A DNA stretch of 64,000 bases from a virus (Duplodnaviria > Caudoviricetes): the IMG/VR virus record IMGVR_UViG_3300011868_000001, positions 64,001-128,000 of that record. One strand, written 5' to 3'. The first letter of the stretch is position 1; each line of letters starts with the position of its first letter. Positions 32,622 through 46,306 of the stretch are shown piece by piece. The translations under genes were made by a program, and so were the position numbers. The notes below the pieces were generated by a model. That model searched no databases. It was given only the letters and a program-made list of their open reading frames with translations, and was not told where the DNA came from.

Positions 32622-33047
32622 TCAGCGCACCATTTCCAGACGTTCGGCCAACAGATCACTCAGTGAGCGCATGAGTGATTCTTGCTCACGCAGCTTGAGG
32701 ATGTGTGGACTGACGAGTTCGACCGAATCGAGGTAGGCGATGAGCTTGGACAGGCGATCATCCAGCTGAGCCTTTTCAGCGACCAGACGCTGGACCCAAT
32801 CTGGGCAATCGGACACATCACCCATGGGCAGGTAGGCGCCTTCAAATACAGCACTGGGCGACCAGCTGATGTAACCATCGTGCTTGGGGTGGTTTGGCTG
32901 CCCCCCATCGGTGTACTCAATCAGATAGCCGGTATCTTCCGGATTTTCGTCAGCCGGAATATCCCACCCGCGGTAGACATTGTAGTCACCGCGGGTCATG
33001 GGCGTTGCCTTGATGATCTTGGTACCGACATAGTGCTGCATTGACAT
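32622..33047 (-). CDS. two-domain phage protein (YxGTK...GYISWSP domain plus crAss001_48-like helical domain), candidate anti-defence nucleotide sponge
   Basis: YVGTKIIKATPMTRGDYNVYRGW...GYLIEY...GYISWSPSAVFEGAY and WVQRLVAEKAQLDDRLSKL...QESLM...LAERL. Confidence 0.6.
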   Translation of the reverse strand: MSMQHYVGTKIIKATPMTRGDYNVYRGWDIPADENPEDTGYLIEYTDGGQPNHPKHDGYISWSPSAVFEGAYLPMGDVSDCPDWVQRLVAEKAQLDDRLSKLIAYLDSVELVSPHILKLREQESLMRSLSDLLAERLEMVR

Positions 33048-33162
33048 CTTCCTTGTTGGCTAGTTATAGGCGGGGAGTTCTCGGTAGCCTGTCTTAAGTG
33101 CCGACGGGGAAGGCACGACAGGAACGGGTGTAGATGGGCCCTCTACCGGACCTCCCCTGTTC

Positions 33163-33290
33163 TGGACGTTGTGGACGGGAACCGAAACCCGTTCCTCCTC
33201 AGCAGTGCTTTCACCGCTATGCGGGCGGCTAACTCAGATGCATTGTCCAAGTAACCTTGCTGAGGCGTTCGTATGTAAACTACCACAACG
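33163..33290 (-). ncRNA. tRNA-like RNA with encoded UCCA end and an approximately 53-nt insertion replacing the anticodon loop
   Basis: CGTTGTGG/CCACAACG acceptor, TA, GTTT/GAAC D-stem, CCTCAGCA/TGCTGAGG stem, ACGGG/CCCGT T-like arm, TCCA. Confidence 0.65.
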
Positions 33291-33583
33291 AACTGGGTTG
33301 GGGAATTGCCCAGTAACGCTCACGTCACCCTAGACGACTACTTGACTGTCGGGGCGTGGATACCAGGTACAATTCCCCAAACTGGGAGGAAGGGCCGGGA
33401 CTTAGGCAGTGATACCTGGGGGAGGGTTCCTTGCCGGGCTGCTGAAGGCCCTGCAACTCACTACCCTCACCCCGGCCCTTCCAAACAGGACGGGAGAGTC
33501 GTCCGACTGGTCAAGGGGACCAATCCAGCACCAGTCATCCGATCGCCGTGACGAAATCGGTGGACGGCTCTCCCTAACTGAGA

Positions 33584-33713
33584 CAAGTAGTCGGAGTCGA
33601 ACCGACTGGATACAGGGTATCCACAGCTACCACCCTTCCTGACCCGATGCCGACAATATGGCTCCAGGAAGCTAAGGCCGAATCTCACGGCGAGCACGGT
33701 TAAGCTGTACTTG
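33584..33713 (-). ncRNA. tRNA-like RNA with a canonical T-arm and an expanded central domain
   Basis: CAAGTA/TACTTG acceptor-like stem; GTCGG-TTCGACT-CCGAC T-arm; GGATAC/GTATCC extra arm. Confidence 0.6.
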
Positions 33714-33787
33714 AATTTAAACCGACTGTCGGGACGGCATCCACCTTTACCGCATGCAAGACCTGCACACGACCAACAGTCGAAAAG

Positions 33788-33862
33788 GGTCTCAGTGACC
33801 AGGACTCGAACCTGGGACTTGGCCTACGGCCTTTAGTTCTAACCGACTGAACTACCACTGAG
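33788..33862 (-). tRNA. tRNA-like gene with shortened anticodon arm (pseudo-tRNA or tRNA mimic; GUA in a 3-nt loop)
   Basis: TCAGTGG/TCACTGA acceptor, TA-GTTC-AGTCGGTTA-GAAC D-arm, CCAGG-TTCGAGT-CCTGG T-arm; anticodon arm only GGCC-GTA-GGCC. Confidence 0.7.
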
Positions 33863-33905
33863 CACGAAATGCTTCGAGAGCGTCCAATGATCGGACGCTC
33901 TGTCG

Positions 33906-33935
33906 CATAGATTACATCCCGCTGTACTTTTTTAC
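33906..33935 (-). promoter_or_regulatory. putative middle/late promoter for the RNA array
   Basis: GTAAAAAAGTACAGC...TATG; similar A-tract motifs lie upstream of other minus-strand operons. Confidence 0.45.
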
Positions 33936-33938
33936 GAT

Positions 33939-34397
33939 TTACTTGTCTTCACCGTCTTCGATATAGCGTTCATAGTACTCGACCAGCTTGCGGTAGGTGT
34001 AACGATCAGTCACGCCTTGCTTGATACACGCCAGAGATGAGTCACGACGAACGCCCTGCTCGAAGAGTAGGCTCTCCAAGGTATCGACAACGGTGTATGA
34101 GCGAATCCGTCCTTCACCACAGTTGACGTAGATAAGCCCCTTGTCCTTGTGCTCGTTGACAAAGTCAAAGATCTTCTTGGCCAGTTCAGGCCGCATGCAG
34201 TGGTCGCGCTCATCCTCGCTCATGTGGTCGCCAGGGAAGAAGTCAATGCGCAGCAGTGGGCGATTGTCTTTGTTCGGGATGGCGGCACCGGGACTGTACT
34301 TATCGCTGATGCTGATCAAAGGCGCATCGATCGGAATCTGACCGACTTTCTTCTTACTGATGTTGGTAAGGCGTAGGGTGGTGTTGGGCGTTATCAT
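33939..34397 (-). CDS. Cx5R (PTP/dual-specificity-like) phosphatase
   Basis: IYVNCGEGRIRS P-loop; LISISD; start re-called at MITPN (ATGA overlap). Confidence 0.8.
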   Translation of the reverse strand: MITPNTTLRLTNISKKKVGQIPIDAPLISISDKYSPGAAIPNKDNRPLLRIDFFPGDHMSEDERDHCMRPELAKKIFDFVNEHKDKGLIYVNCGEGRIRSYTVVDTLESLLFEQGVRRDSSLACIKQGVTDRYTYRKLVEYYERYIEDGEDK

Positions 34398-34555
34398 GCC
34401 GAGGCCTTCTTGGTGAGTTGGTTGTTGGTGCGCTGCTGACGAATCTTGGCGCATTTGACATGGTTATAACGCTTATCGCAACGACGGTGACCACAGACAT
34501 CGCACAGTGCGGTCATAGGGGCGCCGAAACCATTGCTGTTAAATCCACGGGCCAT
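34394..34555 (-). CDS. 53-aa Zn-finger-like microprotein
   Basis: MARGFNSNGFGAPMTALCDVCGHRRCDKRYNHVKCAKIRQQ...; AAGGAG SD; ATGA-coupled to the phosphatase; missed by the ORF track. Confidence 0.7.
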   Translation of the reverse strand: MARGFNSNGFGAPMTALCDVCGHRRCDKRYNHVKCAKIRQQRTNNQLTKKASA

Positions 34556-34570
34556 GCTGGACAGTTCTCC

Positions 34571-35023
34571 TTACTGGGTGGGTGCGCCTGTGGCGCAAAT
34601 GTAGTTGGCTTCAACAAAAGGTAACATCGACAAGTAGACGTACCTGATGTCGTCTTCAAAACTCAGACCGCCGTTACCGCAGCCCATGGGCGGGATGGCG
34701 ATGGTCTTGAATTTATCCGGGTGTCGATTGACCAGGTTTACCAGCTTGTTGAAGTTATGGATCACCAAGTCACGCGGTGACGGGTTGCGCCAGTTCAATT
34801 TGGTGGGCACTAAGAGGTACTTTACCCCTTCGTGCTGATACAGAATGAACTGGGTCGGATCAAGGATGGGGTACATCTTCTTGTAATGTTTGTACAAACC
34901 AGGGATGGTGTCTCGAGCCGTTTTAGCAATCCCGGCGCCCATGGCACCCACCAAATTGATGGTTATGATTACCGTGTCCGCCTCGACACTGAACAAGTCC
35001 TGCTGAACAATCTCCAGGGCCAT
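34571..35023 (-). CDS. macrodomain protein (DarG/Poa1p-like ADP-ribose hydrolase)
   Basis: DLFSVEADTVIITINLVGAMGAGIA, VPTKLNWRNPS, IAIPPMGCGNGGL. Confidence 0.9.
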   Translation of the reverse strand: MALEIVQQDLFSVEADTVIITINLVGAMGAGIAKTARDTIPGLYKHYKKMYPILDPTQFILYQHEGVKYLLVPTKLNWRNPSPRDLVIHNFNKLVNLVNRHPDKFKTIAIPPMGCGNGGLSFEDDIRYVYLSMLPFVEANYICATGAPTQ

Positions 35024-43726: not shown

Positions 43727-46306
43727 TTAATGCAGGCTTAGTGTATACTTAGAAACCAGTTGCATGTGACTAAGTACTTTGCCCCGAAAAAATTCTTCCT
43801 TGTTGCGTCTGTATTTCATGTGTTGTTCTATCTCAAGGCAACCAAAGTAAATGAACTCCGGTGTCACATCTGGCCAGTCTTTCAGCGGTCGAGTCCGACC
43901 CAGTACCTGTTCATTGGACTGCCGTGAGTCAATGGCGGTCGTCATGAAACTGGTGCGCAGGTTGGGTTTATCCACCGCTGTACCAGCAGAACCAATGGTA
44001 GAGACAGCGATGTCTGCTTCCAGGAAGTCCTCGTAGGAGTCGTTCTCGGAGCCGACGTAACGCACGATGTTAAGTTCCGGGTACATCTTGCGCAAGCGTT
44101 CAACCATCAGGGTACACAGATCGACCCGTGCAAAGAACACCAAGGCGGTCTGGCCTTCTTCTCGCACCGAGACAAATCGATGGTAGATAGCATGATCGAC
44201 GATCTTGAGGTAGTTCTTAAGCAGGCCCTTATGTCGCATCAAGGACTCTTCGAACGTGGTGTGCGAATAGCCCTGTGCCCCCATGTACCGAATCTTTACA
44301 TCCGGGTCCATGTGGTACAGTACCGCGGTTACGGCAATGTAGACGTTATATCCGCCGCCATCGTGACGTTGCATCACGGGGTATCCGATGTCATACATCC
44401 GGTTCTTGAACGCATCCGAACTGGTCATGGTCGCCGACAGTCCCAATGACTTGGGAATGTGGGTGTACAGATCAATCCGGTAGTTGTTGTGGAACTCTTG
44501 ATGCAGTTCGTCCGTGACGCGGAACCCAGCGCCGATGGTTGGGTAGAAGTCGATCGGCTTGATCGGGTAAATCTTGGTCGAGCCGTTGGTGTCCTCGTAG
44601 TACTTGATGTAATCACGCATGGTGGCCGAGGTGATGATGATCACCTTGGCTTCGAGGGTACCTTCCAGTGCCATCTTCTGCAGCGCGATCATGTCCTTGG
44701 AACCCCGGACAATGAGGAACTCACCACGCTTGAACTTGAAGGTCTCCTCAAGGTCGGATTTCCAGCGTTCGACGTAGCCCCCTTTGAAATGGATCACAGT
44801 GCGGCGACGCAGCTTGTTCATGCAGTACTGGGCGACGAAGGTGTTGTGGGTGACGATGAAGTCTTGGACCACAAACAACTTCGACGCGTTATCGACCGCA
44901 ATGCAGGTGGCCTCCTCGATACCCACCGGTTCGATCGACTTGACTTGCAGCTTCAGCTTGTGCGAGTACTGATTCGCATCGTTCACGCGTTCAAGCTTCT
45001 TCGGCAGGCTGACAGCATCGCTGGGCTTGGGTAGGCGGATATAGACATTATACGCCAACTGGCCATCACGTTTTTCGCCGTTATGGGTGTAGACGGGGTT
45101 CTTGGTCCTGATGCGGGCCATGCCTCCTAATGACCGGACCAGGTACTGCACATCCTTGGCCAGTTGTTCGCTGACGGTGCAGTAAGAAATTGTGCCATGA
45201 CCATTGACATAACCGTCTGTGTCAACCAGGCCTTTGAGCAGTTCCTTACGTTGCTCGATGGAGGCTTCCAGGTACATGGATGGGATGAACTTATCTTGAG
45301 CAAGGCACCCCATCAGACCGAGTTCTCTTAACGACTCACGGATGACATTGTACCTGGCACTCCCAATGACGATTCCATAGGTGATCCCGTGGCGCTTAGT
45401 TACCTGCTGACCAAATCTCATCGATCTTGTCATCCTGTCTACGATGTAATCATCCGGGGTGGAGAATGAGACATCGCCCCCGGAAACACAACCATCGCCA
45501 ATGAGGACTCCTAGAACCCATGGATCAATAGGCAATACCTGAGGTGGGATATCTTCAGGCTTGAGCAGAGGGACGTAGACGCGGGGATTGGGCATCTCAA
45601 TTAGACGTTTCAATTCCAACGTATCTCGCACCTGCCAACGCTGGTGTTCTACGGTGTTGACATAGTAAGACTGCCATAGATGCTCTCCGCATACTTCGAC
45701 ATGTCGACCATCGTAGAAGGTGACTCTGTAGAGTTGTTTCTTCCCTTGGGGGTAAACTCCAATCACCCTAGTGGGTTTTCCATCGTCGCCGATGACATAA
45801 TCGCCGACTTTAACCAACCCCATCCTCTTCCATCCGCCCGGTATCCTGATGGGGGTGTTGTCTGACGTGGCTTTACCACCCCCGGTCTGGAGAGTCACCA
45901 TCTTGATGATCGGGTCCCATTTAGGGTCCTGATCGTCTAAGACGTATTCGATAATACCGACTTGTTTCTCCCGTGGCGGGAACATCTTGCGGACTTCGAA
46001 GTTGACCTCAGGCAGGTCGGTCAGTTTTACGACATGGTGAACAATAGGGACTAGGTGTTCAGCATAGCCGAAGTTCTTAAACAGGTGGTTCTTCAGCGAA
46101 TTCAGTTGATTGCGATGAAAACTGAATTCGCGGCGATTCCTGGTAGCGGCAGCAAAGGTTCTGACTTTCTTAGGGACGAACTTCTTGCCTTTCTTTTCAT
46201 AGCCGATTTCGATGAGCGGCTTGCAGAACGAAAACATCGCCTGTAAGTCGCGCTCGGTGATCACGTCGGATACTTTGATCGCGTGACTATAGACATCAAT
46301 TTTCAT
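43727..46306 (-). CDS. SF2 (DExH) helicase, phiKZ gp75-like, intein-containing
   Basis: QTGGGK^T Walker A, DELH, LSAT, SAGTAVD, QVLGRTR; 516 aa after splicing. Confidence 0.9.
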   Translation of the reverse strand: MKIDVYSHAIKVSDVITERDLQAMFSFCKPLIEIGYEKKGKKFVPKKVRTFAAATRNRREFSFHRNQLNSLKNHLFKNFGYAEHLVPIVHHVVKLTDLPEVNFEVRKMFPPREKQVGIIEYVLDDQDPKWDPIIKMVTLQTGGGKATSDNTPIRIPGGWKRMGLVKVGDYVIGDDGKPTRVIGVYPQGKKQLYRVTFYDGRHVEVCGEHLWQSYYVNTVEHQRWQVRDTLELKRLIEMPNPRVYVPLLKPEDIPPQVLPIDPWVLGVLIGDGCVSGGDVSFSTPDDYIVDRMTRSMRFGQQVTKRHGITYGIVIGSARYNVIRESLRELGLMGCLAQDKFIPSMYLEASIEQRKELLKGLVDTDGYVNGHGTISYCTVSEQLAKDVQYLVRSLGGMARIRTKNPVYTHNGEKRDGQLAYNVYIRLPKPSDAVSLPKKLERVNDANQYSHKLKLQVKSIEPVGIEEATCIAVDNASKLFVVQDFIVTHNTFVAQYCMNKLRRRTVIHFKGGYVERWKSDLEETFKFKRGEFLIVRGSKDMIALQKMALEGTLEAKVIIITSATMRDYIKYYEDTNGSTKIYPIKPIDFYPTIGAGFRVTDELHQEFHNNYRIDLYTHIPKSLGLSATMTSSDAFKNRMYDIGYPVMQRHDGGGYNVYIAVTAVLYHMDPDVKIRYMGAQGYSHTTFEESLMRHKGLLKNYLKIVDHAIYHRFVSVREEGQTALVFFARVDLCTLMVERLRKMYPELNIVRYVGSENDSYEDFLEADIAVSTIGSAGTAVDKPNLRTSFMTTAIDSRQSNEQVLGRTRPLKDWPDVTPEFIYFGCLEIEQHMKYRRNKEEFFRGKVLSHMQLVSKYTLSLH
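44843..45871 (-). mobile_element. class-3 intein (343 aa) with LAGLIDADG homing endonuclease in the helicase P-loop
   Basis: Starts with Ala (ATSDNTPI), ends VTHN^T; WCT triplet (EHLW, ATCIAV, VTHN); LGVLIGDG and LKGLVDTDG. Confidence 0.9.

Follow-up and report, generated by a model that had tools for sequence, protein, structure and literature searches.

The closest phage precedent for the RNA array described here is the set of stable RNAs encoded in the tRNA clusters of phages T4 and T5. These RNAs (T5 RNA1, RNAI, RNAIII, RNA2, RNA2H, and RNAIV; T4 RNA C and RNA D) are ∼70 to 170 nt long and lie in tandem in phage tRNA regions (PMC9697503). They are annotated as stable RNAs, and some are tRNA-like with inserts, as is also seen in the present array. 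Their ends are similar, too: T5 RNAI finishes as helix-GCCA and T5 RNA2H as helix-GCCU, both of which resemble the ends of array units. There is no sequence homology between the two sets, and, different from the T4 and T5 clusters, the array consists mostly of Y-shaped units that are not tRNAs, has uniform linkers of 8 to 9 nt and a promoter-like motif of its own, and, in the genome studied here, contains no decoding tRNA.

Two bacterial systems share parts of this layout. Polycistronic tRNA operons such as valVW and leuQPV string together acceptor-like helices with short spacers. Their tRNAs are cut apart by RNase P, for which RNase E may or may not be needed in addition (PMC2190699). Unlike such operons, the array carries cargo that cannot decode, and most of its ends read NCCC or NCCU, not NCCA. 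In the 4.5S (SRP) RNA of Escherichia coli, encoded by ffs, a long helix between the G-rich 5′ end and the 3′ end is followed by ACCC-AUUU, and several of the phage units end alike. Its precursor is a non-tRNA substrate of RNase P that derives from a single gene, whereas the phage units form an array; none of them matched SRP RNA by sequence, Rfam, or covariance model. Among phage RNAs, the small C4 antisense RNA of P1 and P7 likewise owes its maturation to RNase P of the host (PMC2190699).

Eight structured RNA units in a jumbo phage genome

The stretch of DNA analyzed here (64,000 nt, hereafter the window) comes from a virus record of 253.7 kb, a genome judged 96% complete. It encodes homologues of PhuZ and ChmA as well as a phiKZ-type RNA polymerase subunit, and we therefore consider it a nucleus-forming jumbo phage. 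Among named phages, Pseudomonas phage pPa_SNUABM_DT01 (DT01) is the closest, with 67% identity in one neighbouring protein; the host is presumed from a relative, and the enzyme rules used below are those of E. coli and Salmonella.

Between a phosphatase-like gene ending at 33939 and a PF21825 gene starting at 33047 lie ∼890 nt without a convincing gene, which fold better than shuffled sequences (z −4.9). This stretch harbors eight structured RNA units on the minus strand (33862-33072), each closed by a terminal helix. With units set by coordinates and automatic tiling, the features are, from 5′ to 3′:

33939-34394 (-): upstream gene, phosphatase-like, with a Cx5R motif; position conserved, weak DSPc matches in 2/8 members
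33906-33936 (-): promoter-like element, an A-run with TAC, a 14- to 15-nt spacer, and TATG; the motif recurs ahead of relatives' arrays
33878-33900 (-): 5′ leader hairpin, conserved in L001, L002, L003, L024, and L044 (L numbers denote related loci)
33791-33862 (-): unit T0, tRNA-like, its anticodon arm collapsed to a 4-bp stem and a 3-nt loop; tail A-CCC then U4
33723-33782 (-): unit H, a branched hairpin of 60 nt
33584-33713 (-): unit A, tRNA-like, with a 6-bp acceptor and T arm, a variable arm, and a large insert, without a D arm
33575-33583 (-): linker A-B, 9 nt, UCUC in place of NCC
33492-33574 (-): unit B, a Y-shaped RNA with an invariant UCACGG loop
33483-33491 (-): linker B-C, 9 nt, GU-CC-UGUUU; certain close relatives have lost the CC
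33388-33482 (-): unit C, a 14-bp terminal helix, a second helix, and two loops, one of them C-rich
33379-33387 (-): linker C-D, 9 nt, U-CCC then AGUUU, in agreement with the RNase E consensus RN/WUU
33300-33378 (-): unit D, a long hairpin
33291-33299 (-): linker D-E, 9 nt, AA-CCC-AGUU
33167-33290 (-): unit E, tRNA-like, with an 8-bp acceptor, a D arm, a T-like arm, and an insert replacing the anticodon loop
33158-33166 (-): linker E-F, 9 nt, U-CCA then GAACA, without a U-run; identical in L001, L002, L024, and L049
33072-33157 (-): unit F, a Y-shaped RNA and the most widely kept unit
32622-33047 (-): downstream gene, PF21825 (contig-table label Sequestin, an anti-defence nucleotide sponge family)

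Resemblance to tRNA is confined to some of the units. T0 scores 41.2 bits against the Rfam tRNA model and has homologues in L003 and L044, while ARAGORN called no tRNA over the window, T0 included; unit A reaches 20 bits against tRNA-Sec, which is under the cut-off. A cloverleaf with D and T arms is present in T0 and largely in E. The canonical 7-nt anticodon loop is missing, being only 3 nt in T0 and replaced by inserts in A and E. Units B, C, D, and F have neither a T-loop nor a D arm. The closing helix measures 10 to 17 bp in C, D, most B copies, and families D2 and G of related phages, and a small capped-hairpin motif is common to D, D2, and G. Family G (L005:17998-18106, L031-L035, L045, L046) is a 100- to 111-nt RNA whose 12- to 17-bp closing helix ends in ACCC, ACCU, or AUCC, with a tRNA following at once; GCAGC-type capped hairpins recur in it as they do in D and D2.

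The promoter-like motif occurs in 23 distinct instances ahead of RNA arrays in relatives and three times genome-wide, making it a probable promoter of the array for the phage RNA polymerase. We take it to resemble the middle and late promoters of phiKZ. An A-rich middle-promoter motif is known to drive tRNA genes (PMC8244752, PMC11512511). No terminator-like site was found between unit F and the PF21825 gene, and the latter is probably cotranscribed with the array. Further upstream lies a macrodomain-like gene; a small conserved Cys/His-rich ORF (∼53 aa, 34410-34571, minus strand) sits between it and the phosphatase-like gene. Elsewhere in the window, a helicase- or terminase-like protein (43727-46306, minus strand) carries an intein (Hint) and LAGLIDADG domains.

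The linker rule and its conservation

Our first-pass annotation had proposed that successive RNA domains are each followed by the motif YCC(A/U)GUU. Its five sequences are indeed located on the minus strand directly after closing stems, and two further linkers, of 8 and 9 nt, lie upstream of them; the one after H (9 nt, A/U-rich) is an exception in lacking CC. The linkers thus are real and their CC is conserved, but only three of the five match YCCWGTT exactly, and the GUU is not conserved. The linker read as CCCAGTT (33299-33291) is present, except that its first two A's had been counted into the stem, where they may pair with an upstream UU. By itself, the heptamer is common, with 43 matches in the window versus 31.6 expected. 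What is rare is the arrangement: a chain of five stems, each followed by N-CC and spaced by 7 to 11 nt, occurs once in the 253.7-kb genome, the longest stem-plus-N-CC chain elsewhere comprising two. The domains had also been described as sharing no sequence. While there is no BLAST-detectable similarity among the units of the window, each of them is a member of a family that relatives have conserved.

Locating related arrays through their flanking proteins revealed that unit number and composition vary while the punctuation is kept. An automatic rule was applied to held-out tails, meaning tails that differ from all those of the window and of the relative closest to it. Among 31 such tails, 27 carry CC within ≤5 bases of the stem, compared with a background of 20% for 737 comparable genome stems, 22% for GG-starting stems, and 28% for strong stems. 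An exact YCCWGTT is contained in only 1/31 held-out tails, which rules out the exact heptamer as the conserved signal. The corrected rule reads stem, 1 to 2 nt, CC, and an A/U-rich tail, for a total of 7 to 10 nt. This length holds at 31/31 junctions, which comprise 25 distinct sequences. In 22 of the 25, the first C of the CC lies between +1 and +4, against 9.2 after within-linker shuffling (p < 5e-5), although the linkers are related by descent, such that the effective sample is ∼6 to 7 families, not 25 to 31, and binomial p-values overstate the case. The start is at +2 in 10 of the 22 linkers, at +3 in 11, and at +1 in one. CC falls in the 5′ half, and the last three positions are 84% A/U. 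By family, CC always follows C, D, D2, E, and F, usually follows B (GCUC being found after B in close relatives), and is absent after A and H.

Could a dedicated phage-encoded endonuclease or RNA-binding factor read YCC(A/U)GUU, in the manner of CRISPR or type III antitoxin repeats? Such a factor would fit the motif's three exact occurrences in the window, as well as the conserved adjacent genes without an assigned substrate in a phage whose genes are mostly unannotated. Yet the near-absence of the exact motif from held-out tails and the degeneracy of the linkers argue against it, and host-type determinants account for the part that is conserved. CRISPR and type III antitoxin arrays have near-identical repeats of ∼20 to 40 nt or more, unlike the short and varied linkers seen here. 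Moreover, the neighbouring genes resemble a phosphatase, a macrodomain protein, and a nucleotide sponge, and searching the phage genome for RNase P RNA, a CCA enzyme, the RNase T family, RNase III, and RtcB found none, with the caveat that divergent forms could be missed. We consider a dedicated factor the least probable of all explanations.

Alternatively, the linkers might be functionless leftovers of cassette duplication combined with a C-rich composition beside G/C stems. Such an origin would agree with the two family C copies found in one array, the loss of CC after some B copies, and the runs of C at stem ends. However, a base other than C mostly stands between stem and CC (28/36 tails versus 12 to 19% in the background), CC is kept across families without detectable similarity (column identities 44 to 69%), and R-CCUA follows unit F without exception in 16/16 aligned copies. 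We therefore regard this origin as very unlikely.

Probable processing by host tRNA and 4.5S enzymes

We think it probable that the linkers are punctuation of the tRNA and 4.5S type, by which host enzymes would divide a polycistronic precursor into small stable RNAs: RNase P would cut at the 5′ side, exonucleases would trim to CC, and RNase E would be optional. RNase P pairs with R73-C74-C75 to anchor its substrates, and both model hairpins and pre-4.5S RNA are cut by it (PMC11143913). At the array, the host enzyme would bind each closing helix, its GGU motif pairing with NCC, and cut at the 5′ base of the helix, thereby also freeing the upstream unit. On a duplex with an overhang, RNase T halts when it meets CC, and 4.5S RNA retains ACCC (PMC3439924); RNases PH and T would shorten the phage trailers in the same fashion and halt at CC, leaving an overhang of 3 to 5 nt like that of 4.5S RNA. 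The predicted end of most units is thus NCCC, NCCU, or NCC, not NCCA, which would make for stable and mostly non-chargeable RNAs.

A CCA-like 3′ end plus a U-rich cleavage signal had been suggested from the start. The polarity of CC followed by A/U, its conservation, and the 4.5S-like layout support this in part. Two corrections apply: NCCC or NCCU is the usual predicted end, and a U-rich part is not required, given that ACA closes most of the linkers ahead of unit F, mostly without a U-run. RNase E prefers RN/WUU (PMC5222698), a consensus with a full match in 2/25 distinct linkers, while 14 contain WUU. With so few matches and mostly no U-run before F, we take RNase E as optional; it may cut U-rich tails first and would be dispensable for linkers ending in ACA. 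As for a phage-encoded inhibitor of RNase E, no homologue of Dip was found in the genome, though a divergent form could be missed.

Several observations count against processing by host enzymes. In about half of the linkers (the 11/22 at +3), CC is one base off the tRNA register; in our reading, most of these could regain the register through one extra U-A pair. In addition, CC is lacking after A, H, and some B copies, and T0, A, and E start with C instead of the usual G+1. The missing T-loop of B, C, D, and F, the scarcity of full RN/WUU matches, the shared descent of the linkers, and enzyme rules carried over from other bacteria to a presumed host weigh on the same side.

The array might also stay one long RNA, a multidomain scaffold or a leader of the downstream mRNA, with the linkers serving as single-stranded hinges or binding sites of fixed length. 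The uniform spacing of 8 to 9 nt, the lack of a terminator-like site after F, and the conserved order of unit families are all in line with this. Against it, units are gained, lost, and duplicated singly, ranging from 1 to 8 per array, and related units occur singly among real tRNAs. Furthermore, the CC-then-A/U polarity fits known processing signals, and the terminal F keeps its R-CCUA though no unit follows. On balance, a persistent long RNA appears quite unlikely.

Host processing is a grammar already known, and the motif itself is no new mechanism. The new part is that this grammar is most likely applied to RNA families that are apparently uncatalogued, with the exact ends of at least six such phage families being predicted from it. 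Three of the families are carried by DT01, a cultured Pseudomonas aeruginosa phage, so processing and function are open to direct testing.

The units, their ends, and a possible role

The units are conserved structures: family C shows double-sided changes at 19/28 pairs, a number reached by 0/500 shuffles, and the loops of family F are invariant across 16 copies. A natural deletion has removed the core of unit C in L038 (5489-5524, compared with L040:5489-5585) while retaining closing stem and linker. In relatives, long-stem units related to those of the array immediately precede real tRNAs and are punctuated alike, which, as does the L038 deletion, favors host processing; in distant relatives, a second cluster alternates similar units with real tRNAs. 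Units are interleaved with tRNA genes in DT01, L032-L035, L045, and L046; the window has pseudo-tRNAs only.

The tRNA was the only Rfam match in the window and 13 related loci. Among GenBank phages, DT01 alone matched the units, two DNA pattern scans of viral contigs returned no further arrays, and a search of open papers found no description of these RNAs. There was no ARAGORN tmRNA call and no Rfam match that would identify a unit as tmRNA or YrlA. A phiKZ ncRNA (270485-270595) was rejected as a counterpart, since it is missing the stem-plus-CC layout. Upstream of PHIKZ302, phiKZ has two hairpins with C-rich loops (L057:5453-5665) that recall the family C loop, homology not being implied.

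A further regularity concerns the 3′ ends. Decoding tRNAs in relatives have an encoded CCA end in 31/31 cases. Of the tRNA-like RNAs that Rfam detects and whose anticodon arm is collapsed or carries an insert, 8/8 end in NCCC or NCCU and 0/8 in CCA, these eight representing two families only. The split is not absolute: unit E, alone among the window units, has an N-CCA end in tRNA register (U-CCA), and one long-stem family (L032, L034) ends in RCCA. N-CCA in register is found in 2/25 distinct linkers, the predicted end usually being NCCC or NCCU. Judging from how the CCA enzyme works, NCCC ends would block CCA repair and charging. The processing grammar further suggests that a CCA versus a CCC or CCU end may sort chargeable from non-chargeable products of one pathway.

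What the released RNAs might do is more speculative. The conserved loops suggest binding partners, and our guess is that the RNAs would act through them as ligands or decoys for host proteins. With the Sequestin-labelled gene downstream and the macrodomain-like gene upstream, a decoy role is therefore plausible but unproven. A more elaborate proposal, which we offer as possible though unlikely, is a swappable library of decoy RNAs: NCCC and NCCU ends would allow maturation by RNases P and T yet block CCA repair and aminoacylation, and the RNAs, released beside the mRNA of a Sequestin-family sponge, would titrate host defence or translation-control proteins as an RNA-based counter-defence. The C4 RNA of P1 and P7 has a loop-displaying shape as well; different from C4, the units have no such Rfam match, and searching the phage's own sequence for complementary targets gave nothing significant. 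Mimicry of rRNA or pairing with it was dismissed, given that the best matches (unit A with 5S rRNA, 15/16; the F loop with 16S rRNA, 11 nt) are at chance level for ∼70 queries.

Relatives have a second RNA cluster that the window lacks (L001:11934-12340, L024:5940-6340, L044:12130-12300, L005:18530-18990). It opens with a tRNA-like RNA that carries a large insert and continues with longer stretches of structure, which the loci have in common; it had no Rfam match in the scanned loci. In tRNAs of five loci, a variable hairpin interrupts the anticodon loop (L032:7378-7489, L033:7089-7197, L034:7445-7553, L045:13293-13407, L046:12802-12905), every one of these tRNAs ending in CCC or CCU. One close lineage has a 172-aa gene in place of T0 inside the array, with H cut to 32 nt (L002:9330-9850, L019:853-1371). 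Lastly, distant relatives carry nested or doubled tRNA-like sequences in which D- and T-arm motifs are repeated (L022:6600-6870, L037:6000-6920, L045:13560-13720).
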